Positions 2,539 through 56,665 are shown, counted from the first letter of the stretch. The stretch is DNA of 64,000 bases from an uncultured Acidobacteriota bacterium (GCA_963794955.1 CAWCGF010000003.1:195915-259914), one strand, 5' to 3'. Program-made: numbers and translations. Notes: generated by a model from the sequence alone, not told the origin.

Positions 2539-4507
2539 TTAGGGTTGATTATTTTGCTGCTTGAGAAATGCGCTATATCGCCCTAAAGCTGTTAGGGGGA
2601 ATTGATTGCGATATTGGTGGTAGTTAATGTAGAAATGGCCCGGAAAGCCGGTTCCTGTGAACTCGGCTTCGGGCCAACTTCCTTCACTATTTATTGAGTT
2701 CAATAAATACTCAATGCCCCGCGTTACACTGACCGATTCATAATCGCCCGCAGCCATCAATCCCAACAAAGCCCACGCGGTTTGTGAGGCCGTGCTAGGG
2801 CCTTTGCCGCGTAGCTCTGGTCGTTTGTAAGATTCACACGTTTCGCCCCAGCCGCCGTCCGCATTCTGTCTTGACCGCAGCCATTGCGTCGCGCGTTTCA
2901 CTTCATCGCACTTCATCGCAAAGCCTATAGATTGCCAACCGACCAACACCAGATAAGTCCCATAAACATAATTTACGCCCCAGCGCCCCCAGTATGCGCC
3001 ATCGCGTTCCTGCAAATTCAAGAGGAACTGCATGGCTTGATTTACCTGCGCTGCTGACGCCAGCTTTTCGCCCCAGGCTTTTTGCAGGTGACCGAGCGCT
3101 TCCAGCACACGACTTGTCACGTCTGCCGTCGGCGGATCAATCATCGCCTTCAAATCGCCGTAGGGCATCTGATTCCACAACTCGTTCGTGTTATCCACAT
3201 CAAATGCGCCCCAGCCACCAGCCTTGCATTGCATGGACATTACCCATTGCATCGCCGCGCGAATCGCCTCACGCTTATAAGTATCATTGTCGAGTTTGAG
3301 CGGCAGCAAGGCGAGGACTACGGCGGCAGTATCGTCTACGTCAGGGTAATAATCGTTGTGGAATTCAAACGCCCAGCCCGCTGGTTTGCCCGTGCGATTA
3401 TAGACGGCCCAATCGCCATACTTGAAAATCTGTTTGCTGAGCAACCATTCGCCCGCTTGTTTCAATTTCGGATGTGAGGGCGAGAGACCGGAATCCAGCA
3501 GTGCGGTAATTGCGAGCGCGGTATCCCACGTTGGCGAAACACAAGGCTGCGTGCGGTAATACATCGCTTCACCGTCGGCAGCCGCGCCTTCCGCAATACC
3601 AAACCGCTCAATTGCTTCGAGACCGCGTTTGACATACGGATGATTATTGGAGTAACCAAGCGCATGAAACATCAAAAGGGAATTGAGCATTGCCGGAATA
3701 ATGCCCGCCCAATCACCCGGATGATCCTGCCGTTCAATCACCCATCGCTCCGCTGCCGCAATGCCTTTTTGTCGGAGCGGAACCAGCCCAATTTTGTTGG
3801 CGAATTTTAGCACTTTGTCCGCGAGTAAAAAGCCAGCACCAACCCAGCGTCTTGTCGTTGTTTTTCAGCTTGTAATCCGCTTTCGCTTGTGAGCCTTCGA
3901 CAAACAATTCATCGCATTTCACGCCGCGTTCATACACTGGTCGTTTGTCAATCACCACGAGCAGCGGCACCGTTGAAGACCGCGCCCAACTTGCCATCGA
4001 GTACACATTGAACGGAAACCACTTCGGCAAAAACATAAACCAGGGTGGCAGCGTCGGAATCCCCTCCCACGGAAACGCGCCAAACAGCGCCAGGTGAAGC
4101 TTCGTGAAGACACGTGTTTTGCTCACGCCACCGCGCGCCAATATGAACGCTCGCGCGTTGACCAAACGTTCATCATCCGGGTGGTAGCCCGCCAGCCGCA
4201 GCGCAAAATAGGCTTCCACCGAAGTGCTGATTTCACCGCCATCGCCAAAATACAATTCCCATCCGCCATGCTCACGTTGTTCGCGCAAGATGTAGCGCGC
4301 CGCTTGTTGAATCTGCGCATCCCGATCCGTGCCGAGAATGCGGTGGAGCATAATGAATTCAGCCGTCAACGTGACATTAGCTTCGAGTTCCGCCCACCAA
4401 TACCCTTCGAGTTCCTGTTGCGCCAGCAAATATTCCTGCGCACGATGAATCGCAGCGGCGAGACGTGTGTGTGTGATTGTCTGTGTTGTTCGTTGAAGAA
4501 TCTGCAT
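2539..4507 (-). pseudogene. shc: squalene-hopene cyclase (shc), reading frame disrupted near 3815-3845
   Basis: The N-terminal 257 aa (4507-3734) and C-terminal 424 aa (3813-2539) both match SHC, with QW-type motifs and GWG/DGGWG repeats. The two frames overlap at 3734-3813 around the A5 run at 3833-3837, consistent with a single-nucleotide indel. Confidence 0.8.
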
Positions 4508-9056: not shown

Positions 9057-9669
9057 CATTTTCTTATTCTCTCAACTCGAAGCCGAAGCTGCTGCCTGTG
9101 TGATCTGCGAACGGATGCAGGAACGCAAAGCCGTGTTGAGCAAATTGAATGGCTCGCTCACGCCGCAAGTCATGTTTATCGCCGAAGCGCCGGGGCGGAA
9201 TGGCGCAGATCGCACGCGGATTCCCTTTCATGGTGACGCTTCAGGCAACACATTTGAGAAATTGCTGGCCAGTATTAAGCTCACGCGCGCCGAGATTTTT
9301 ATTACCAACACCGTGCTGTGCTCACCGCGCAAACCAAGCGGTGCCAACGATAAGCCCACGCGCGGCGAAATCCACAATTGCGCTAATTTCTTGCGCCGCA
9401 CCATCGAAATCCTTAACCCACCGGTCATTGCTACGCTCGGCGCAGTTGCCTTGGCGGCGCTCAAGCTGATTGCGGCGCACGAATACAGGCTGAAAGACAC
9501 GGCAGCGCAGGTATTAAATTGGAATGGTCATCGGCTTGTGCCGTTGTATCATCCGAGTCCGCAAGTGCTGATTACGGCACGACCATTCGAGCAGCAGTTA
9601 CAGGATTTCCAGGCTCTTCGCAACGCTATCGAAGTTGATGAAAGCAGGCGACGTGTGCGACTGGGCTAA
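9046..9669 (+). CDS. uracil-DNA glycosylase superfamily protein (family 4/5-like)
   Basis: Motif A-like [19 protein letters not shown] and C-terminal HPSP motif. ATG at 9046 overlaps the TPR gene stop. Confidence 0.6.
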
Positions 9670-9688
9670 CGAAATAACGAGTAGTGTG

Positions 9689-10544
9689 ATGAAAAATCAG
9701 TTTCCCCAAGCCGTGCAAGTTGGTTTGATCGGCGCAGGCATTCAGGCCTCGCGCTCGCCGCACCTCCATGAAAGCGAAGCGCGTGCGGCAGGCTTCGCTT
9801 ATTCGTACCACCTGTTTGACCTTGCACAACTCAACGTCGGTATTGCCGCTTTGCCGCAATTGCTCGCCAACCTGCAAACGCAAGGGTTCGCCGGAGTAAA
9901 CATCACACATCCTTGTAAACAAGCTATTATTCCGCTGCTGGACGAATTGTCGCCCGACGCTGCCGCTATTGGCGCTGTCAATACCGTCGTCTTCGCCGCG
10001 GGCAAGCGCATTGGCCATAACACGGATTGTTCTGGCTTTGCTGAAAGCTTCCGGCGCGGTTTGGCTGATGTCGCACGCCGCCACGTTGTCCTGCTCGGCG
10101 CGGGCGGCGCGGGTGCTGCCGTCGCCACTGCTGCTTTGCAAAGCAGCGTCATCAGGTTACTGATTCACGATGTCGAGAGCCACCGCGCCACTGCCTTGGT
10201 CGAACGATTGCGCTCGTCGCTTTGGCGTTGCTCGCAGCGCGGGTGTTACTAATCTTGCTGCCGCCCTTGCCACTGCGGATGGCTTGCTCCAGGCCACACC
10301 CATCGGCATGCACGGACATCCCGGTTTGCCCTTGCCAATAGCCTTGCTACGGCCTGCGCATTGGGTCGCCGAGATCATTTACTTCCCACTCGAAACCGAA
10401 TTGCTGAAGCAGGCACGCGCACTGGGTTGCCGCACGCTGGATGGTAGTGGGATGGCTGTCTTTCAGGCCGCGGAGGCCTTTCGCCTGTTCACCGGGGTAA
10501 CGCCAGATCGCGAGCGGATGTTGCGTTGTTTTGCAGAAATGTAA
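9689..10544 (+). pseudogene. aroE: shikimate dehydrogenase (aroE), frame disrupted near 10205-10225
   Basis: The N-part (9689-10252) carries AroE motifs: GLIGAGIQASRSP, NITHPCK, GAVNTV, GHNTD, LLGAGGAGAAVA. The C-part (frame +1, about 10215-10544) carries the substrate/NADP C-terminal motifs: ATPIGM...DGSGMAVFQAAEAFRLFTG. The switch lies at ...LVERLRS / RFGVARSAGV. Confidence 0.75.
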
Positions 10545-33755: not shown

Positions 33756-33983
33756 ATGTCTATCTTAATCCGAAAGAAAACGGCCACAGCAATAAACCCG
33801 GAACAGGCTGAACGAGAGCAATTGATCATCGCGTTGGAAGAAACGACACCAGCAACCAAGCTGGGGCGAAGGTTGAAAACCTTGCGATTGAAGATGCTGC
33901 GTGAAGGGCAGAAGCTGCGGTCGTTAGATGAAATCAACCGGAGCTTGGGGAGAGCCAGCGATGCCGATCTTAACCTTCCTTGA
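33756..33983 (+). CDS. putative type II antitoxin (VapB-like position)
   Basis: GGAGG RBS 8 nt upstream. 75 aa. Its 3' end overlaps the PIN-domain gene start by 23 nt. TTGACA box at 33714-33719. Confidence 0.5.
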   Translation: MSILIRKKTATAINPEQAEREQLIIALEETTPATKLGRRLKTLRLKMLREGQKLRSLDEINRSLGRASDADLNLP

Positions 33984-34368
33984 TGCCAACGTTTTGATCG
34001 CTGCTGCAACGGGACGATTTACCGTTTCAATGGACGCACAGGCGATCTTGAGTGATGCCAATCGGCTCTTTGCGTCTTCTCCTTTTGTTCGGCTTGAAAC
34101 GATTCCGAAGGCGTTCTTTCATCGCAACACGGATGAGGTGAAATTTTACGAAGCATACTTTTCAGCCGTGAGTTCGTATGACGATGAATTAAATGAGTTG
34201 GGCGCTGAAGCTGAACGAGTCGGAAAACGATTTGGCTTGAATATGGGCGATGCATTGCACATTGCCGCAGCCTTGCGTTTACAGGCAGATGAATTTATTA
34301 CCGCCGAACGTCCGACTTCACCTTTCAAAAATGTGGTCGGCGTGAAAGTTATTTCCATCTATCGCTGA
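33961..34368 (+). CDS. PIN-domain ribonuclease (VapC-like toxin)
   Basis: N-terminal ILTFLDANVLI with the conserved Asp, and later acidic residues (GDALHIAAA). Confidence 0.7.
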   Translation: MPILTFLDANVLIAAATGRFTVSMDAQAILSDANRLFASSPFVRLETIPKAFFHRNTDEVKFYEAYFSAVSSYDDELNELGAEAERVGKRFGLNMGDALHIAAALRLQADEFITAERPTSPFKNVVGVKVISIYR

Positions 34369-34390: not shown

Positions 34391-36343
34391 TTGTACCTCT
34401 CACGTTTATTCATCAAAAATTATCGTTCGATCAAAGAACTTGACTTGACCTTTGCCAAAGGCAAGAACGTGCTCGTCGGCAGGAATAATGCGGGCAAGAG
34501 CAATGTCATCAAGGCAATTGACCTGGTATTGGGCGAATACTCACCGACCTACACAAAATCGGAGAACGTCACCGAAAGTGATTTCTATTCGTGGCACGAC
34601 GATGTGGCAGGCCGCGAAGTTATTCAATCTGCCAGCGACATGTTCATCTGGTGCGAGTTGCGGCGTGATGTTGGCGAAATGCTGAACTACGACGAAATGT
34701 ACAAGGCGAATTCGCTGGTGATTTACACCCGGCTCGAAGGCTGGACGGTAGACAACAAGCCGATCAAACAGGCTGCGCGCATCTCGCAGCACGCATTGCC
34801 TTACAGTTACGAACCCATCTTTGAACTCAACGAAGACAATGCCGACCGCGATTGGATTGTGACGCGCAAGCGGGAATTGCAGCCGCTCGAAAAACAATTC
34901 GACGACAAATATCATTACGCGTTTGCCTTCCGTGCGACCAAAGACGAATTCGGGCACATCAACAAAGATATGCGGTTCCTCTACCGCGAAGACGAGTTCA
35001 GCGATTGGGTCTTGGCCTTTCGCGCGCCGATTCGCAACGAGCTATTACAAAGCGCGATTATCCCCGCTTTTCGTGATCCCGGCTCGCAACTGCGGCTCAA
35101 TAATTGGACGTGGTATGGACGTCTGATGCGGCATCTGACGGCGGGGCAGGAAGGCTCGACTGAATTGCAGTCCGCGATGGATCAGGTCAAATCCGTCGCC
35201 GACAAAATCTTTGCCGAAGCCAAAGAGCAAACGACGGCCAACACGCTTGATCTCGCTTTCCCGGACACCGAACTGCACTTTCAATTCAACACGGAAACGC
35301 GCGCCGACCTCTATAAAAGTGCGGCGTTGTACGTGGACGATGGCTACAAATCGCAGCTTGCCGACAAAGGCTCCGGCATTCAGAGCGCCGTTGTGATTGG
35401 CTTGTTTCAATATTACACGCGCGCTGTCAACACGGTGACGTCGGCGCTGCTTTGCATCGAAGAGCCGGAACTTTTCCTGCATCCCCACGCGCGCAAAGTC
35501 ATCAGCAATCGGCTCGACAACTTTTTGGACGGCAACAAACATCAAGTGATTTTGTCCACACACAGCGAAGAGTTCATTCGCTCGCAAGCAGGCGATTTGC
35601 ACGTCGTCCGCATTCGCAAAGATGCCAGCGGCACGCAGGCGACCAGTGTTAATTACCGTGCCTTCAGGCCATTGCTGCTGTGGGAAAAACAAAACGAATT
35701 GTTTTTTGCGGACAAGGTAATCGTCTGCGCGGGCTATCACGACTTCATCTTGAAAGCCGTCGCCGAAGAATTATTCCCCGGCCAGCTTGAAGAACAAAAC
35801 ATCTCCATCATCGCCGTCGGCGACAAACGCTATCTCAGTCAGGTTGTGCAGTTGATTTTGCAACTCGGCATCAAATGTTTTGTCTTCGCCGATTTTGAGT
35901 TTTTGTTGCGTGACGAAGCCGAAACTGCCACATACTATTCCGCCACGCCGCAAGAACATTTGCTGAGTTTGAGCGATGCGTTCTTCACGCAGGAATGCAC
36001 TTTTGGTGCGACCGGAGCCAAAGCCAAACAGTTCATCGAAAAGCTTCGCTCGCAAATCAAAGAATTGGATGTGGTGGCCTTTTACACCGCCAAATCCGCC
36101 GCGCAAATTTCGCATCCGAACATCCAACAAGTCCTTGACCGCCTGCGCAGTAACGGCGTTGGCATCCTCAGCGGCGAACTCGAAAACCTGTCTAACGATT
36201 ACGCGTTTCTGTCGCCCACGGACGGGCTTTCGCTGGCAAAGATTTACGCGCTGAATCAACGATTGATGAGTGGAGAAAAGATCAGCGAGTTGTTGCTGAC
36301 GAGCGAATTGAGTGATTTCTTGCGGGTGGTCTTGGCGCGCTAA
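34391..36343 (+). CDS. OLD-family ABC-type ATPase (AAA_15/AAA_21-like) with a C-terminal Toprim-like region
   Basis: GGAG RBS then TTG at 34391, 23 nt after the vapC stop. Walker A GRNNAGKSN, Walker B LLCIEEPELFLHP, H-loop ILSTHS. C-terminal VIVCAGYHD...IIAVGDK...FVFADFE resembles a Toprim with the first Glu replaced. Confidence 0.7.
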   Translation: MYLSRLFIKNYRSIKELDLTFAKGKNVLVGRNNAGKSNVIKAIDLVLGEYSPTYTKSENVTESDFYSWHDDVAGREVIQSASDMFIWCELRRDVGEMLNYDEMYKANSLVIYTRLEGWTVDNKPIKQAARISQHALPYSYEPIFELNEDNADRDWIVTRKRELQPLEKQFDDKYHYAFAFRATKDEFGHINKDMRFLYREDEFSDWVLAFRAPIRNELLQSAIIPAFRDPGSQLRLNNWTWYGRLMRHLTAGQEGSTELQSAMDQVKSVADKIFAEAKEQTTANTLDLAFPDTELHFQFNTETRADLYKSAALYVDDGYKSQLADKGSGIQSAVVIGLFQYYTRAVNTVTSALLCIEEPELFLHPHARKVISNRLDNFLDGNKHQVILSTHSEEFIRSQAGDLHVVRIRKDASGTQATSVNYRAFRPLLLWEKQNELFFADKVIVCAGYHDFILKAVAEELFPGQLEEQNISIIAVGDKRYLSQVVQLILQLGIKCFVFADFEFLLRDEAETATYYSATPQEHLLSLSDAFFTQECTFGATGAKAKQFIEKLRSQIKELDVVAFYTAKSAAQISHPNIQQVLDRLRSNGVGILSGELENLSNDYAFLSPTDGLSLAKIYALNQRLMSGEKISELLLTSELSDFLRVVLAR

Positions 36344-48856: not shown

Positions 48857-50558
48857 ATGTCACGCTTATTTCTTATTGCAATTCTGCTCACCTTGCCCTT
48901 CACGCTCAGTCCGTCTGCGCCTAAAAAAGAACTCAAAGCGGGTTTCGCCGCCATCACCATCACACCGTTTGGCAACAATCCCGCGTGGGATGGCACGGTT
49001 ACAGACACGGGCGTGTGGGGCGAAAAGTTCACCGACACTAATAAAAACAGGCATTGGGATAAAGGCGAGCCGTTTGAAGATGACGAGGGAAATACGCAGA
49101 TTGACGCTGGCTCGAAAGAAAAATACGACGGCATTTATCTCGCCGGCTTTGGTGACAATCGTCTTGCTACAGGCAAGCACGATGATTTGTGGGCACGCAC
49201 GATGGTGCTGGATTATGGCTCAACGCGCATTGCCATTGTCTCTGTGGATTTGATTGGGTATTACTCGGATGGTTCTTACTACGGTATCAGCCAGGTAAAG
49301 AAGCTGCTTGACCCAAAACTAGGCATTCAAGAAATCCTCGTGGCTGCGACGCATAACCACGAAGCGCCCGATAGCATTGGGGCCTGGGGCGAGAATTTTA
49401 TGAAGGATGGGAAGTATCCGAAATACTTGCGCTTTGTGGATCGGATGATTGCCCGAAGCATCGAAGATGCCGCGAAAAGTTTGCAACCTGCCAAATTCAA
49501 AATCGGCGTGACTGATCCGGTGCAAGTCTCCCAGCCTTGCCGGAATGCAGGTGCGCAATGGTGGGCGTCCGCCAAAATTCTTTGACGAAGAAATGCGCGT
49601 GATGCAATTCATCAGCAAGCAATCCAACCAGACAATTGGCACGCTCATCAACTGGAACACGCATCCTGAATCCATGGAAGACAAGAACCGGGAGATTTCC
49701 TCGGACTTTATTCATGCTGCGCGCGCAACCGTTGAGAAGAAATTCGGCGGCACGGCGCTGTACATTTCCGGTGCAATTGGCGCAGTTGAAATCGTGGGCG
49801 ACTCGAATACAAAGCACACTGACCGCACCAAATTTGACGGCCAGGAATTTCCGCTCAAACCGAACAGCACCCGGCCTGTTTTTGCGTTCGAGCGCACGGA
49901 AGCTATTGGGCGCGACATCGGCAAAGCTGCCATTGAAGCGATTGATAAGGGCGAATGGAGTAAGAGCAATGAGTTGGAAGTGAAGAAAGCGGATTTGCAC
50001 GTGCCGATGGACAATCAAGCGTATCTGATTTTGCTCAAACTCGGCGTATTGGATACGGTGATGAATCCAGATGTGACAGGCCAACCACAGTCACGGACGA
50101 CGATTTATGCGATCAACTTGGGCGATGCACAGATCGTCACGACGCCGGGCGAACTGTTTCCTGAACTCTATTACGGCCTGGATAAATATCGCCGCAACGA
50201 TTGCCCTGCTGCTGACACGGGCGCGCCGCTGGAGCCGAGCATTCGCGGCGCAATGACCAGGAAATATCGCTTTATGTTTGGGCTGTGTCCTGATGAGTTC
50301 GGCTATATCGTTCCCGCGCACGATTTCCGCCGCGAGACGATTGATTTAAAAAATCCGCAGATCAAAAAATCGCCCGATGCGTGCAAGGCGCAAGGCGTGC
50401 CGGATCATTATCACGAAACGAATTCCTCTAGTTCTGTTCTCGCCCCCGCTTCGGCTTGTGTGACCGTCGCGCTGTTGACGGGCAAAATGCCGAGCGCTGC
50501 GGCTTGTAAGAATGTGGCGCAGTATTCGGAATATGTGAAGGGCTTGCCGACACGATAG
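48857..50558 (+). pseudogene. neutral/alkaline ceramidase-like hydrolase, frame disrupted near 49521-49585
   Basis: N-part (48857-49585) has a signal peptide and [23 protein letters not shown]...[10 protein letters not shown]. The C-part (49545-50558) continues the same family in another frame; the two ORFs overlap by about 40 nt. Confidence 0.55.
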
Positions 50559-50584: not shown

Positions 50585-52192
50585 TTATCTCACCTTCAGC
50601 ACGACGAACGTCACATCGTCATCTTGCGGTTTGCCGTGCGCCCAATCATCGCCGCTTTGAACGAATTGTCGGATGATTTCAGCCGCTGATAAATTCACCG
50701 CATTTGCCAGAATCGCTTGCATCTGTTCGTAGCCGAGCATCTCGGCTGCGTCATTGAATCGTTCCGGCAATCCATCGCTCATCAACACTACCACATCGCC
50801 GGAAGCCAGCGTGAGTTCCTGTTCCTGGTAGGCGTAATTCGAGATGCTGCCGAGCGGCATGGCTTTGTGCAGGATTTCTTCGATCTGGTTTGTTGCTGCG
50901 CGATACAGCAGGATCGGAGGCATTCCGGCGGCGGCCAGCGTCAAGCGATAGTCGGTTACTTTGGCAATTGTCAGCGCCATAAACAGCCCACGCATATTCA
51001 TCTTTTTGAGCGCACGCGAAAATCGTTGCAGCATCGCGGCAGGCGGTTCGGCACCACTTGTTTCATTGAAGAGGCTTTTCGTTGCCGTCACCATTGTGCC
51101 AGCTTTCAAGCCATGTCCCGTCGCATCGCCAATCGCAATCGTCAACGTGTTATCGTCCGCGACGTGAAAGTCGTAGTAGTCGCCACCCACTTCCGTCGCC
51201 GTTTTCATATATGCCGCGATTTCCAAATCGGGAAACTGCGGCACCTTCTTCGGCAGCATCGAAAGCTGCAATTGGCGCGCTTCTTCCAACTCTTTGGCGC
51301 GTTGTTCATTTTGCGCTTCGAGTTCGATTTTCTGTTCGATCAGGCGCGAGTTTTCCAGCGCCATCGCCGTTTGCCCTGCGACATTCATCAGCATTCGTTT
51401 GTCTTCGCGCGAGTACGGCAAATCGCCTGCGCGCGGCCCCAACGCCAACACGCCCAGCAATTCGTCTTTCGCCGCCAGCGGCAACACCAGATTCGTTTTC
51501 AATGCGCGCAACGTATCGAATTCCTGCTGTGCTGTGCCATCGCCGTTCGCCATCGCGGCAAGCTGTGTAGCGACGGGCGAATACGGATCGTCCCAATCAA
51601 TTTCCGCCGGCTGAGCGGATTCCTGAATGCGCTGCACAACAAACGCATCATCGGGCAAATGTAATTCACGCGCGACGGCATGCGACAGCTTCTCGCGTTC
51701 GTGATAATCGCTCGACACCGCGCTGCTGAAATCGTGTCGTCCATTGCGCAAAAAGATCGTCACGTTCGCGGCATAAAGCGCCTGCTGAATGATTTTTGCC
51801 GAGAGTTCCAGCACCTGATTGACGTTGGTTGTCGTGCGCAGCGAACTCGTCAGTTCCGTCAAAATCTGCTGTGCATCGTACGCATCACGAAAGAAGCGGC
51901 GCTCAATCAGCGGATGCACTTTGCGATTGACGTATTGCAACCCCAGCACCATCAGCACCGTGCCGACAACGATGATGAGCGTGCGCGTGTTGCTCCCAAA
52001 GCGATCCAGCCAAACGCCGATGCGTCCGGCGAACAGGAAGCTGAGCAGCGCGAAGGCGAGCAAGGCTTCGATCAGGATGAAGCCACGTGAAGCGAGCAGA
52101 TAGCGAACGCTGCGGCGAATGACAACGCTAATGTCGAGAACACGATGTTTTAGGATAGCGTAAGCCCAAGCTATGGGAATCCATAAAATCAA
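50585..52192 (-). CDS. SpoIIE/PP2C-family serine phosphatase with N-terminal TM helices and a GAF domain
   Basis: PP2C block MLPKKVPQFPDLEIAAYMKTATEVGGDYYDF...IAIGDATGHG...LMSDGLPE...DDDVTFVVLKVR. Paralogous to 54048-56665. Confidence 0.8.
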   Translation of the reverse strand: MILWIPIAWAYAILKHRVLDISVVIRRSVRYLLASRGFILIEALLAFALLSFLFAGRIGVWLDRFGSNTRTLIIVVGTVLMVLGLQYVNRKVHPLIERRFFRDAYDAQQILTELTSSLRTTTNVNQVLELSAKIIQQALYAANVTIFLRNGRHDFSSAVSSDYHEREKLSHAVARELHLPDDAFVVQRIQESAQPAEIDWDDPYSPVATQLAAMANGDGTAQQEFDTLRALKTNLVLPLAAKDELLGVLALGPRAGDLPYSREDKRMLMNVAGQTAMALENSRLIEQKIELEAQNEQRAKELEEARQLQLSMLPKKVPQFPDLEIAAYMKTATEVGGDYYDFHVADDNTLTIAIGDATGHGLKAGTMVTATKSLFNETSGAEPPAAMLQRFSRALKKMNMRGLFMALTIAKVTDYRLTLAAAGMPPILLYRAATNQIEEILHKAMPLGSISNYAYQEQELTLASGDVVVLMSDGLPERFNDAAEMLGYEQMQAILANAVNLSAAEIIRQFVQSGDDWAHGKPQDDDVTFVVLKVR

Positions 52193-52769
52193 TAACCAAG
52201 AGATGATAAATAAGCTCTCATAACACAGGCGGGGACATCACGGGGAGAGAAACTAGAACATAACAGATAAGTATAAGCGGAGTGGCAACGGTGATACTGA
52301 CTATAATCCACTTGATTCGCTTTCGCTGTTGAAGCTCTGTAGTAACCCTGTAGTTACGAATCACAACAAGAATGATTGCGATGGAAACACAATGAAAAAG
52401 GTAAAGATAAGCGCATGAGAAATAGGGGCGTAGGTCTCATGAGGCTAAGAAATGGATACGGCATGTGTGTTCCTATGCCTATTGCATAAAGCGCCCATTT
52501 TATGATGTTCCAGAATCTACCTTTGCGGACACCTGGCGGAAAACGTAAGAAAAGATGAAAAAGTATCGGAAACGCAAGTGAATGGCCTCAAAAAGAATAT
52601 TCAAGATAGTTCCAGATCAGCTTTTCCCTATCGTCGAAGAGAAGAGAAGGAAGGCTTAGCACAATTAATAATTGGTTCTGTCCGAAAAAATAAAAGGCCG
52701 CAAAAAAGAGTCGAACGATTAGAGTCGGAAGGCCGTAGTAAACCAGCCAGGATTGCTACAAGAAGGCAG

Positions 52770-53054
52770 CTAAGAGAAACTAATCCTATGGAAAAGACTC
52801 TCCGCAATTCGCGAGAAAAATATCGGTGACCGATGAAGGCTTAGACTCAATTCAATTTGTTGCCTTATTCCATTGCGTTCGACTTCTAACCAATAAGTTG
52901 TGCCAATAGGCATGAAGCGTCTAGCTTGGTTGAGATCATCCCGCGCAACGGGAACCTCATTGATTGCCAGAATACTATCACCTACTTGTAATTTGCCTTC
53001 TGCCGGGCCACCGGGATAAATGCGTGTAACTCGCAATTTGTCTATCCACTTCAT
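52770..53054 (-). pseudogene. orphan PDZ-domain gene fragment (remnant of a SpoIIE-paralog N-terminus)
   Basis: LRVTRIYPGGPAEGKLQVGDSILAINEVPV aligns with the PDZ domain of the downstream paralog (VTRTDPKGPATVLLPGDEFLAINGITP). It is followed by a low-GC segment with no coding frame. Confidence 0.5.
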
Positions 53055-53062
53055 ACCCGGTC

Positions 53063-53197
53063 TTACTCCATCCCCAGATACTTGTAGACCATTGTCCCGG
53101 CGAACGCCCAGCTACACACGCCGATTACAGCGGCTACGACAACGACCCAGAAAAAGGGGTGTTTGTCTCGGAACTGATCGCGCAAGGTTCTCCGCAT
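53063..53197 (-). CDS. small single-TM protein (44 aa)
   Basis: AGGAGA RBS 6 nt upstream of ATG at 53197. Hydrophobic core FFWVVVVAAVIGVCSWAFAG. Confidence 0.35.
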   Translation of the reverse strand: MRRTLRDQFRDKHPFFWVVVVAAVIGVCSWAFAGTMVYKYLGME

Positions 53198-53277
53198 GAT
53201 CGTTTCTCCTGATTGATTTGAACTGCTGTTGGCTGAGGCGCATTGTAGCACGCGCGGGGTAGAGAACAAGGGCGCGG

Positions 53278-53613
53278 TTAGGCTGCGGCGTATTCGGTAT
53301 ACGGTCTGACATACGGCGGCTGAAAGCCCAACACGATGTCGCTCTTTGGCACGCCTGCCTCTTCTAATTCAGCAGTGATGCCGTGCTCGATCCAATCTTC
53401 CTGCACCCAGATTTTTCCATTGATGATTTCCAAATGGGTGATGACAGTATGCACGCGCCGCCCGTTGTCCCAGCCTTCGCGCACCAACAGATAGCTATCC
53501 GACTGGCGATCAAAGACCGTCTTGTCGCGCAAGTCAGTATACCGTCGCAATTCTCCGACGTGTTGCGTCAGGAGTCGCTCGATGATGGTTCGATAGTGTT
53601 CCACTTGATCCAT
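53278..53613 (-). CDS. xisI: XisI-family protein
   Basis: N-terminus MDQVEHYRTIIERLLTQ and overall length match the XisI family. Confidence 0.75.
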   Translation of the reverse strand: MDQVEHYRTIIERLLTQHVGELRRYTDLRDKTVFDRQSDSYLLVREGWDNGRRVHTVITHLEIINGKIWVQEDWIEHGITAELEEAGVPKSDIVLGFQPPYVRPYTEYAAA

Positions 53614-54017
53614 TGCACAACCTCCGTAGTTTGCGGGTCAAACACCAGCAAATTCACGTGCTCTGTTCGCAAAAACTCTATGACGTGCGGCAAGCTGATG
53701 TAGCTTTCATACACATCTTTCCGTATAGCCAAAAACAATTCGCGGTCAGGCTGCGTCCGGCGCAGCAGGTAGCGATACAGCACGATTTGCCCCATCGCAT
53801 CTTCCAAATCTTCTGTCCGCGATCCGCGCAAAAAGCTTTTGACTTCAACCGCAATTTTACGCTCGTCTTTTTCTGCGGCAATGATCTTTTCTGCGCCGAG
53901 ATCAACGTAAACCGGAGCGCTTCCCCACAGCAGCAACAGCGGATCGTCCGTGATCGTCCAGCCGTCTTTTTCGAGCGCGAGCCGAACGTGGGGATGGAAC
54001 AGGTCTTTTGCTGGCAT
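53568..54017 (-). CDS. xisH: XisH-family protein (restriction-endonuclease-like fold)
   Basis: MPAKDLFHPHVRLALEKDGWTIT... is a typical XisH N-terminus. Overlaps xisI by 46 nt. Confidence 0.75.
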   Translation of the reverse strand: MPAKDLFHPHVRLALEKDGWTITDDPLLLLWGSAPVYVDLGAEKIIAAEKDERKIAVEVKSFLRGSRTEDLEDAMGQIVLYRYLLRRTQPDRELFLAIRKDVYESYISLPHVIEFLRTEHVNLLVFDPQTTEVVQWIKWNTIEPSSSDS

Positions 54018-54047
54018 AGGCAAGTAGTATAGCGTTTTTCAGCAAGT

Positions 54048-56665
54048 CTATCGAATCTTCAGCACGACAAACGTCACGTCATCATCCGCCAACCGACTCT
54101 GCCCCCAATCATCTCCGGCTTGCACCAGGCGTGTCAGGATTTCTTGCGACGACAAATGCGCGGTGGCGACCAGCGTATGTTTCGCTTGATCGTAGCCGAG
54201 CATTTCGTTGGCTGGATTGAAGCGTTCGGGGAAGCCGTCGCTCATCAGCACAACAATGTCGCCGGGCTGAAGCGCGACGTCTTCCTGTTTGTACGTGTAA
54301 TTCGTCAGGCAGCCGAGCGGCATGGCTTTGATGAAGATTTCTTCGATGTGACGCTGCAGAGGCGCGATAAATCAGGATGGGCGGCATCCCGGCAACCGTG
54401 ATCGTGAGGCCGTGATTCTTGAGCCGCACGACGGTCAGCGCCATAAACAGCGAGCGCAGATTCATCTTCTTGAGCGCGTGCGAAAACCGCTTGAGCATGT
54501 CGGGCAAATCGTCACCGTTGCGCTAATTCGTGAAAGAGGCTTTTCGTTGCGGTCACGACGGTGCCAGCTTTCAACCCGTGTCCCGTTGCGTCGCCAATGG
54601 CTATCGTTAATGTGCCGTCATCGGCGACGTGAAAATCGTAGTAATCGCCGCCCACTTCCGTGGCCGTTTTCATGTACGCGGCGATTTCCAAGTCGGGCAA
54701 TTGCGGCACGTTCTTCGGCAGCATCGAAAGCTGCAATTGGCGCGCTTCTTCCAACTCTTTGGCGCGTTGTTCGTTTTCTGCTTCGAGTTCTTCGCGGCGT
54801 CGCGCGTCTTCGATCATGCGTTCGATCAACCGCGTGTTTTCAAGCGCGAAGGACATCGGCGCGCTGACCGACAGCAGCAATCGTTTGTCTTCATTGGAGA
54901 AGGGCAGATCGCCCAAACGAGCGCCAAGCGAAATGATGCCAGACATTTCGTCTTTGCCTTTGAGCGGCAGGAGCAAGGCGGAGTTCAAGGCCTGCAAGGT
55001 TTCCGTTTCGGCTTCTGTCAATACGGAGACGTTTTCGACGAACACCGATTCACCTTCGCGTTCGACTTCCAACGGGTTGGCGGCTTCAAGCAAGCGGTTG
55101 GCAAGCTCGGTTTGTGATGTGAACTGATGCCCATTGACGCTTGTTGTGGAATGCGGGCTGCGCGGATCGTAATCGCACGAATAGGCGCAAGTGTATGCGC
55201 CTGTCGCTTCATCTTTCAGCAGGATCGTGACCCGCTCGGTTTGCAACGCCGCTTGGATTTTGGTGGCGACCAGTTGGGGCAACTGCTTACGGTCGGTCGT
55301 CGTGCGCAGCGATTCCGAAAGCTCAGACATGATCTGCTGGGCGTTGTACGATTGGCGGAAAAACTTGCGATCAATCAGCGGCGCTAGATAACGGTTGTGA
55401 ATCGCGCGCGTGCCTTGCCAGACAGCAACGCTCACGATGCCGGACACGAGTCCAACGACCAGATGCGATGCCTGAAAGTACCTCATAATCATTCGCAGAA
55501 CGACGGTCAGGACGAGGATGACGGTCAGGAATTCGAGAATGACCGCGCCGCGTGAGACCAATAAATACCGCACGCCGCGCCGAATAATCAGACTGATCGG
55601 AATGACTTTGTGGCGAATGATGGCGTAGGCGAACGACAGCGGAATCAGCGGCATCGTCACCACCATGCTGATTTCTATCCATTGATTCGCTTGTGGTATC
55701 CGCCTTTGCAAACCGAAGAATTCCCCGATAATGACCAGCAGTAATGTGAGAAACCCAATCCCGCTCCCAAACATAATGACGCGCAATCGTCGTCGCGCAT
55801 CTACGCCGGCAACGCGATAATTCACGGCCAGGCAAAACAGCCCTGCGGCCAAATATGCCACTAACGTGGGCATCGGCAGGTGTAGGAAATGATGGGCATT
55901 GAGCCATTTGATGGGCGGTAAGCTGAAGTACCAGAGCCTCGGCAAATCGGGCAGTCTGGTGCCCGCAAAGAAAGGCAGCGCACCCAAATAAAACGGCCAG
56001 TACAGATACCGCTCCACTTTGGGCCAACGCTTCAGAATCGGTGAACGATCCGGAAAAATGAGGAAGAACTTTACGAGCAAGGGCAACGACCAGAGGCCGA
56101 GGATTTTGACAAAGGACACGACAAACTCTACCCCGCGCCCCAGCGCCATCAGGGGCATTGTCCACGTACTCAACAGCGTAAACGTGCCGAGCATCAAAGC
56201 TAAGTACCACGCTTGATCGTTGTCCGGTTTGAGCAGGAACACGAATAGCCCCGTCAGCAGAAAAATCAAATAAATCAGCAGGAAAACCTTTTGCCCCCAG
56301 TCCGGCTGCTGTGCGAGATTTTCCACCGTCACGAGCCGGAACGACAACTCCTGCCCGTTGCGTCGCACCGTCATCGTGTAATTCGTTCCCGGCGGCACGC
56401 GGCCTGCGAAGTTCATAATGCTGGGGTCTTGGCGCGGTGTGATGCCATTGATCGCCAGAAATTCATCGCCTGGCAGTAATACCGTAGCTGGGCCTTTGGG
56501 GTCGGTGCGTGTGACGAGGGGTGGTTTGTCAAATCCCTGTTGTTCTCCGCTCCATCCGTCATAGCTGCCGATGTGAAAGAAGACAAAGTACACCCGCACG
56601 CCGAAGTAAAAAAACAACAAGGCGAAAAAGAGGCTACCTAAAATGAGGCGACGTTTGTTCTTCAC
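54048..56665 (-). pseudogene. SpoIIE/PP2C-family phosphatase paralog (PDZ, polytopic TM, GAF-like, PP2C) with two or more frame disruptions (about 54505-54515 and about 54345-54375)
   Basis: The long ORF (56665-54512) stops inside the PP2C domain right after IAIGDATGHGLKAG...SLFHELAQR. The PP2C domain continues in two further frames (54507-54109, 54323-54048) and matches the upstream paralog residue by residue. ORF bases 56746-56950 overlap the pbp gene and are not coding. Confidence 0.7.

Follow-up and report, generated by a model that had tools for sequence, protein, structure and literature searches.

XisH and XisI reportedly belong to the fdxN element of Anabaena PCC 7120, as described by Ramaswamy et al. 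in 1997, and 2OKF, 2INB, 2NVM and 3D7Q are structures of the two families. To our knowledge, a role for these proteins outside heterocyst-forming cyanobacteria has never been established. The literature that we searched treats them either as factors of fdxN excision or as multi-copy genes without an explanation, and in nothing else. The PD-(D/E)XK superfamily includes XisH (PMC3424549), models of both proteins are credited to Hwang et al. (2014) in the form in which PMC4853749 cites them, and xisHI without xisF is reported for Beggiatoa and Thiomargarita (PMC4853749). Here we describe a xisH-xisI (xisHI) cassette in a 64,000-nt stretch of DNA from an uncultured Acidobacteriota bacterium (CAWCGF010000003.1:195915-259914; the whole analysed stretch is called the window), where it lies between two genes, A and B, for sensor phosphatases of the SpoIIE/RsbU type. 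The locus is a new case, from an acidobacterium, of xisHI lacking xisF, and all of its parts are of known families. In our overall reading, which we consider probable, A and B are two ancient paralogous sensor phosphatase genes with the cassette between them, and the frame breaks are most likely artefacts. The result is mainly a correction of a preliminary description of the locus: what looked like a scar is a single ordinary gene that probable consensus errors have cut up, and the supposed duplication is two old paralogues. The wider interest lies in the comparative evidence on the role of XisH and XisI outside the heterocyst-forming cyanobacteria.

All coordinates refer to the whole window, and all focal genes are on the minus strand unless stated. 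Gene A is the open reading frame (ORF) 50585..52192 with its 5' part, and gene B is 54048..56665. Proteins P0001-P0012 are members of the A family, P0015, P0021 and P0050 are B-type queries in tblastn, and loci of relatives, whose host names are Blastocatellia, are numbered L001, L002 and so on. The features of the locus are:

50585..52192, minus strand: open ORF of gene A, undisrupted, 535 aa, with GAF and SpoIIE domains
50585..52222, minus strand: 3' part of gene A, with the last transmembrane (TM) helices, GAF and PP2C, 80% identical to P0001 residues 317-860
52224..52816, minus strand: gene A segments 3-5, a multi-TM domain in three alternating frames (52816..52720, 52719..52471 and 52421..52224)
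52824..53063, minus strand: gene A segment 2, formerly the orphan PDZ fragment, Pfam PDZ_6, 66% identical to P0001 residues 45-124
53063..53197, minus strand: gene A segment 1, formerly the 44-aa membrane ORF, N-terminal cytoplasmic tail and first TM helix
53198..53277, minus strand: promoter and 5' untranslated region (5'UTR) of gene A, with -35 TTGTTC at 53269..53264, -10 TACAAT at 53247..53242 and ribosome-binding site (RBS) AGGAG at 53210..53206
53278..53613, minus strand: xisI, 111 aa, Pfam PF08869
53568..54017, minus strand: xisH, 149 aa from an ATG (or ..54023, 151 aa from a TTG), Pfam PF08814
54018..54054, minus strand: leader of the xisHI cassette, with a conserved CGCTATACTAC block and TATACT at 54031..54026
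54048..56665, minus strand: gene B, full-length PDZ-multiTM-GAF-PP2C (SpoIIE/RsbU-type) phosphatase, about 866 codons
56665..54521, 54510..54358 and 54347..54051, minus strand: reading frames of gene B, from tblastn of P0015, P0050 and P0021
54347..54521, minus strand: frame breaks of gene B, one between 54521/54510 and one between 54358/54347, separated by about 160 bp, each net +1

The preliminary description had read the region between xisI and the 535-aa ORF as a separate 44-aa TM ORF with a strong RBS, an orphan PDZ fragment (52770-53054) and a low-GC stretch without a coding frame (52193-52770), and it held that the PDZ and most of the TM domain of gene A had been lost or replaced. The objects themselves exist: a 44-codon single-TM ORF begins at ATG 53197 with AGGAG ahead of it, the PDZ ORF (52770..53054, minus strand, 94 codons) matches PDZ_6 at 1.2e-8 in Pfam, and the GC content is 0.41-0.43 over about 52200-52950. 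Their interpretation did not stand, since the small ORF is the N-terminus of gene A, the PDZ fragment consists of collinear A residues and the low-GC stretch encodes the TM domain of A. P0001-P0003 served as queries in tblastn, and P0001 matched the window as follows:

53197..53069, minus strand: P0001 residues 1-43, 88% identical
53063..52824, minus strand: P0001 residues 45-124
52816..about 52720, minus strand: P0001 residues 127-158, about 87% identical (27/31)
52719..52471, minus strand: P0001 residues 159-238, 70% identical
52421..52224, minus strand: P0001 residues 253-316, 64% identical
52222..50591, minus strand: P0001 residues 317-860

A conceptual A protein joined from the 44-aa ORF, the PDZ ORF, three pieces of the AT-rich stretch and the 535-aa ORF aligned over 100% of its length to intact proteins of 860-908 aa, P0001-P0008 among them, and is 73% identical to P0001 (861 aa); the pieces follow, in order, the whole length of intact orthologues of 861-882 aa. 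Between the PDZ match and the point where the C-terminal homology shared by A and B sets in there are 689 nt in A versus 711 nt in B, and the PP2C domain of A lies in one frame (SpoIIE, PF07228, model positions 1-192 of 192, 8.2e-37). Every segment of gene A is there, in the right order and as long as expected, and nothing was lost or replaced. The first residue of the 535-aa ORF aligns to about residue 341 of B, in the last TM helices of that protein, as had been noticed before. The GC dip recurs (0.38-0.48) in the matching gene part of the intact orthologues L001 and L003 and is missing from B; the low GC of A is thus no sign of decay or of foreign DNA. On this comparison the 44-aa ORF, the PDZ fragment and the low-GC stretch are shown to be the collinear first ~980 nt of gene A. 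B itself, tried as a query for B-like remnants in the AT-rich stretch, gave weak matches, and the stretch was resolved with A-type orthologues.

The promoter of gene A is spaced TTGTTC-16-TACAAT and followed by AGGAG, and the RBS of the 44-aa ORF is gene A's own. The promoter/5'UTR region was kept in all the A orthologues aligned (window, L005, L006, L001, L002 and L003), with or without xisHI. Among P0001-P0012 the distance matrices of the N-terminal (PDZ/TM) and C-terminal (GAF/PP2C) parts disagree; P0006, for example, groups with P0001 in the N-terminal part, whereas its C-terminal part places it with P0007 and P0008, which indicates that the A family is mosaic. The discordance implies that paralogues have exchanged modules close to the last TM helices, where the GC content rises from ~0.42 to ~0.58. 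In L005, an ENA scaffold, the A orthologue beside xisHI is broken at 1378-1380 by a single in-frame TAA; the codon is Tyr (FFAAF-Y) in relatives, and both resulting ORFs are in one frame.

Once its frames are joined, gene B aligns over residues 1-866 with P0015, its best match at 59% identity; a search for a near-identical intact copy of its C-terminus, returning targets near the query length, found none, the best match being 61% identical. Pfam recognises PDZ_2 (weakly), GAF and pieces of SpoIIE in B, the SpoIIE domain being spread over three frames with model positions 1-35 and 103-191. A and B share the PDZ-TM-GAF-PP2C family architecture and a conserved C-terminal tail, with about 42-50% amino acid identity (about 50% over the common part) and 71% nucleotide identity in the catalytic domain. 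They are not each other's closest relatives: the closest to A are P0001 and P0002, at 71-73% (P0001, 73%), and P0015 is 59% identical to B. The tandem duplication proposed earlier is correct in that the paralogues are co-oriented, but it cannot be called recent, since each gene has closer orthologues elsewhere; on sequence comparison A and B are old paralogues and not a recent duplication.

The gene order in relatives points in the same direction. L004 carries polA and then genes for PKD, SpoU/RlmB methylase, FHA and transpeptidase proteins, followed by P0015, and this six-gene order, polA-PKD-rlmB-FHA-mrdA-B, is that of the window from 64000 down to 54048; B is therefore the resident gene. 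Orthologues of A have GFO_IDH_MocA upstream in L001, L002 and L107, and on the downstream side L001, L002 and L005 encode a sigma54 response regulator that is convergent with A. Neither neighbour is present in the window, so the xisHI-A unit is in a derived, non-ancestral position here. The junctions of the unit fall exactly at the B stop codon and the A stop codon, and L005 matches the window at 80-82% nucleotide identity exactly from the B stop to the A stop. The xisH-xisI-A order is a conserved three-gene unit in at least six other Blastocatellia contigs, and is present in L005, L006, L105/L106 and L107/L108. In these six or more contigs no B-type gene adjoins the unit, which weighs against the earlier model.

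We then compared the frame breaks across the window. Private indels in A, called against L001, L005 and L006, number nine in its first ~0.85-0.95 kb and are all insertions at non-homopolymer sites: +1 at 53066, 53036, 52822, 52720, 52610 and 52259, +2 at 52589, +3 at 52457 and +5 at 52278. No window-private deletion was found inside gene A. What looks like an in-frame stop falls within a short part that is read out of frame, between a +1 and a +2 insertion, and the 5' part without the private insertions reads through with a single stop. The two breaks reported in the catalytic domain of B are present, each net +1, with a spacing of about 160 bp in place of the 150 bp given before. In the alignment of A and B DNA the break at 54521/54510 is +4/-3 relative to A and that at 54358/54347 is +1, and the end coordinates of the B ORFs are 2, 1 and 0 modulo 3. 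Three further genes of the window are split, each in the +1 direction:

48857..50558, plus strand: ceramidase-like gene, a convergent neighbour that borders the xisHI-A unit and lies outside the cassette; split near 49540-49585 into two ORFs, with Ceramidase_alk model positions 18-147 in ORF 1 and 176-233 in ORF 2 (Pfam)
2539-4507, minus strand: squalene-hopene cyclase (shc), split into ORFs 3734..4507 and 2539..3813 by a +1 change near 3830-3860, with N-domain positions 1-211 in one ORF and 216-289 plus the C-domain in the other (Pfam)
9635-10544, plus strand: shikimate dehydrogenase (aroE-like), split by a +1 change near 10215-10225, with Shikimate_dh_N in 9635..10252 and SDH_C in 10170..10544

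The break in aroE, a housekeeping-type gene, argues for assembly error. A break suspected in polA was rejected, its ORF being continuous to the window end. The idea that frameshifts are confined to the focal 8 kb was also rejected: five gene pairs look intact, yet shc and aroE are split as well. Programmed frameshifting was discarded because the nine sites are all different and have no common motif. Insertions account for 14 of 14 events (p about 6e-5 if insertions and deletions are equally likely).

The corrected 5' part of A has a ratio of nonsynonymous to synonymous substitution rates (dN/dS) of 0.36 versus L001, the same as L001 versus L006, a value of normal purifying selection. Its dN branch (0.065) is shorter than that of L001 (0.107), and the amino acid relative rates of A are not raised. 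Nine neutral indels predict ~5-10% extra substitutions, assuming an indel-to-substitution ratio of 0.1-0.2, and we found no excess. A 1619-nt Logan contig (ERR12037361) encodes XisH and XisI 100% identical to those of the window, while other members of the 90% XisI cluster differ at 7 or more of 111 residues. An ORF of at least 246 codons starts in this contig 81 nt after xisI, which corresponds to the ATG of A, and is open to the contig end. The reconstructed N-terminus of A, used as query in a protein search that seems limited to targets near the query length, retrieved only two short proteins, a result without weight as a negative. The ends of the contig map at about 54077, inside the B SpoIIE tail motif, and at about 52455, adjoining the private +3 insertion at 52457; from their coordinates, these ends would fit branch points of the assembly graph, i.e. 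population heterogeneity.

The cassette is compact (~760 bp). XisH matches PF08814 at 5.8e-49 (model positions 1-134 of 134) and the structures 2INB and 2OKF at 3.2e-35 and 8.3e-33, in agreement with the restriction-endonuclease-like fold assigned to it before and with its superfamily listing. The VDLGAEK and IAVEVK motifs are kept in the alignment to 2INB, and we read VDLGAEK...IAVEVK as the putative catalytic D...ExK residues. XisI matches PF08869 at 1.2e-39 (model positions 1-109 of 110) and 3D7Q at 5.8e-24. The 46-nt overlap of the two genes noted earlier is real (53568..54017 and 53278..53613), and an equal overlap occurs in L005, L006b, L089, L105 and L107. A promoter-like TCGATA-17-TATACT in the leader overlaps the B stop codon (54050..54048); the promoter scan itself is weak, with 3 sites versus 2.9 expected.

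Alignment of seven cassettes with their leaders revealed that the homology begins about 10-30 nt upstream of xisH, a part that includes the CGCTATACTAC block, and ends with the xisI stop codon. Nucleotide identity is 80-86% across at least six different genomic contexts, and 82-86% for the cassette in the unrelated contexts of L007, L008, L086 and L089. In the window xisHI sits between the B stop codon and the A promoter, a slot whose content varies among genomes:

Slot upstream of the A promoter in L005 and L107/L108: xisHI (in L107 nothing else)
Slot in L006: two xisHI pairs
Slot in L105/L106: two xisHI pairs and a 79-aa+PIN (vapBC-like) pair
Slot in L001: 85-aa and Asp-protease-like pair
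Slot in L002: GNAT gene

The tandem arrays upstream of the A-type promoter occupy L006 273-1806, L105 2424-4623 and L106 402-2601, and the two xisHI types in them are 66-68% identical to each other in nucleotides. Only about 25-45 nt separates neighbouring cassettes; attC sites need longer spacers, and an integron-like array was rejected on this ground. In L086 the cassette lies among YhcG, Uma2 and AAA_15/21 genes, beside an Asp-protease-like pair of the L001 type. In one metagenome scan with XisI as query, none of the 17 loci had an A-type gene downstream. All 81 loci with a xisH match also have a xisI match. Among about 100 copies, xisH is broken (premature stop, frameshift or truncation) with xisI intact at about 11 distinct loci and the reverse holds at about 1; extra, orphan copies of xisI are found in L089 and L102. 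Such an excess of xisH breakage would be expected if XisH were harmful and XisI protective. One frameshifted xisH (~residue 32) with an intact xisI is found at L094 153-580 and L095 4098-4525, in two different contigs of Joint Genome Institute (JGI) metagenomes.

A further set of observations concerns the SpoIIE 3' tails. The tail motif is GATGATGACGTGACGTTTGTCGTGCTGAAG, with the coding motif DDDVTFVVLK, and 1.06 Mb of gathered sequence was scanned for it. Three loci, those of the window, L008 and L086, have a co-oriented SpoIIE-family gene whose stop lies 20-40 nt ahead of xisH. An orphan copy of the tail motif (DD[VI]T[FL]..., with a stop within 5-9 codons) follows xisI at 24-65 nt in L008 and L086/L087, so that direct repeats of about 22-29 nt flank the cassette (21/22 nt in L008). 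The copies are:

L008 5900-6700 and L086 5900-6860, also L087: orphan SpoIIE tail copies that duplicate the tail of the SpoIIE-family gene before xisH

The next gene after these copies is Uma2-like, by Pfam in L086 and by eye in L008. The scan found 15 tail motifs; 5 of them, independent of each other, are no more than 70 nt from a cassette end. L007 has a decayed tail-like remnant before xisH and no gene body, and the Logan contig begins inside the B tail. These duplications hint at possible recombination or targeting at SpoIIE tails. A test of whether the last 13 residues of A are of B type, i.e. a hybrid tail that would point to recombination at the tails, gave a suggestive result short of significance, 4 of 12 residues being different. 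In L008 a SpoIIE-family member shares its operon with genes that, by eye, look STAS-type and anti-sigma-kinase-type. Pfam scans of about 50 ORFs of the window, among them every ORF within 10 kb, gave no match to a recombinase or resolvase, and no recombinase was found beside xisHI in L005, L006, L086 and L105-L108.

Elsewhere in the window, a PIN-domain gene (33928..34368, plus strand) directly precedes an AAA_15/AAA_21 ATPase gene (34391..36343, plus strand; 650 aa, with an OLD-like TOPRIM domain), and the two could form a defence or abortive-infection type pair. An AAA_15/21 gene similar to this ATPase lies near xisHI in L086.

We are inclined to regard the frame breaks as consensus artefacts of the assembly and not as decay; a possible cause would be a polymorphic site that the assembly turned into an additional base, and the clustering in the 5' part of A might reflect a strain-polymorphic mosaic module. 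If real, the breaks are extremely recent. It is unlikely, in our judgement, that A, B, the ceramidase-like gene, shc and aroE are recent pseudogenes and that A survives as a truncated 535-aa GAF-PP2C protein. Such a history would fit selection on the truncated product, with nine disruptions in the 5' 0.85 kb of A and the 1.6-kb 3' ORF untouched, and it gains from the premature stop in the L005 orthologue and from the origin of the sequence, a deposited 328-kb contig of a metagenome-assembled genome (MAG). Bacterial pseudogenes, however, usually show a deletion bias. All 14 events here are insertions, neither a substitution excess nor a rise in dN/dS accompanies them, and the Logan assembly with identical xisHI keeps the A ORF open; the statement that the locus is visibly decaying is not acceptable as fact. 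The other proposal, a recent tandem SpoIIE duplication hit by xisHI insertion and rearrangement, which left a PDZ fragment, a small ORF and AT-rich filler, is very improbable. It accounts for co-oriented paralogues flanking xisHI and for the non-ancestral position of the xisHI-A unit, but A and B are only about 42-50% identical with closer orthologues elsewhere, all N-terminal A segments are collinear, AT-richness is native to A-type genes, and xisHI lies upstream of the A promoter in at least six other contigs with no B-type gene beside it. The surrounding pieces are gene A and not debris, and the cassette stands upstream of a conserved promoter, so the rearrangement scar falls away as well. 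Some observations weigh against our overall reading, both in its artefact part and in the toxin-antitoxin-like role that we propose below for the cassette. The breaks are uneven, nine in 0.85 kb of A and none in its next 1.6 kb or in xisHI, which simple random error does not predict; the A gene of L005 has a genuine-looking in-frame TAA; and the Logan evidence consists of coordinates only. The asymmetry between xisH and xisI comes from small numbers at loci retrieved with XisH or XisI as bait, PADLOC gave 0 families at E<=1 and NCBIfam no model match for XisH or XisI, and the literature searched holds no description of the pair as a toxin-antitoxin system.

With two old paralogues and probable consensus errors as the preferred reading, the locus could work as follows. 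A and B each consist of an N-terminal TM helix, a periplasmic PDZ domain, a multi-TM block, GAF and PP2C/SpoIIE, and xisHI would be a two-gene module complete in itself, shuffled horizontally and equipped with a -10-like element of its own. XisH, with its PD-(D/E)XK fold and putative catalytic D..ExK residues, would be the harmful partner and XisI its neutraliser, and the module would for that reason be retained and spread like a toxin-antitoxin cassette, functionally unconnected here with any recombinase. The nuclease and antitoxin roles are putative; that xisHI behaves like a small mobile cassette of toxin-antitoxin type is plausible from the comparative data. The selfish or addiction-type module of the preliminary description agrees with the sharp bounds, the variable slot, the arrays and the loss of xisH, and what has to be given up is its insertion inside a recent duplication. 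A different idea ties xisHI to the SpoIIE-family genes themselves, as a nuclease and directionality factor acting at, or homing to, conserved 3' tails. The position of xisH 20-40 nt past a SpoIIE-family stop in the window, L008 and L086, the orphan copies after xisI in L008 and L086/L087, the 5 of 15 motifs at cassette ends, the L007 remnant and the start of the Logan contig in the B tail speak for it, yet we consider it improbable: no tail copy follows xisI in the window, L005, L006, L105 and L107, none precedes xisH in L089 or L107, the scanned window ORFs (about 50) include no recombinase, SpoIIE paralogues are numerous in these genomes and the sample is small. A combination of the two, in which the Blastocatellia xisHI would be a nuclease/inhibitor addiction cassette moving between genomes and between paralogous loci via SpoIIE 3' tails, with duplicated tail motifs left behind as in L008 and L086 and insertion-only scars from cleavage and error-prone repair, seems to us decidedly doubtful. 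xisHI does show an affinity for the 3' ends of SpoIIE-type genes.

Compared with known systems, A and B resemble the RsbU/SpoIIE-type PP2C sensor phosphatases of Acidobacteria in their PDZ-TM-GAF-PP2C arrangement (relatives are annotated as 'sigma-B regulation protein RsbU' or 'SpoIIE family protein phosphatase') and differ in that both are interrupted as assembled. With type II toxin-antitoxin systems such as VapBC, the cassette has in common an overlapping two-gene operon of about 0.75 kb, a patchy, multi-copy and multi-context distribution with tandem arrays beside the 79-aa+PIN pair, and a putative toxin gene, xisH, that is broken more often than its partner; unlike in those systems, the gene of the putative nuclease comes first. 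The likeness to the Anabaena fdxN system consists of full-length family matches of XisH and XisI with strong matches to solved structures, the adjacent, overlapping xisH-xisI order and the PD-(D/E)XK fold of XisH with putative catalytic D..ExK residues. In contrast to that system, no XisF-type large serine recombinase was found among the ~50 window ORFs, no gene is interrupted, since xisHI lies between separate full-length A and B, and the 760-bp cassette stands alone in a non-cyanobacterial, non-differentiating host. The situation here resembles that of Beggiatoa and Thiomargarita, where xisHI likewise occurs without xisF (PMC4853749).

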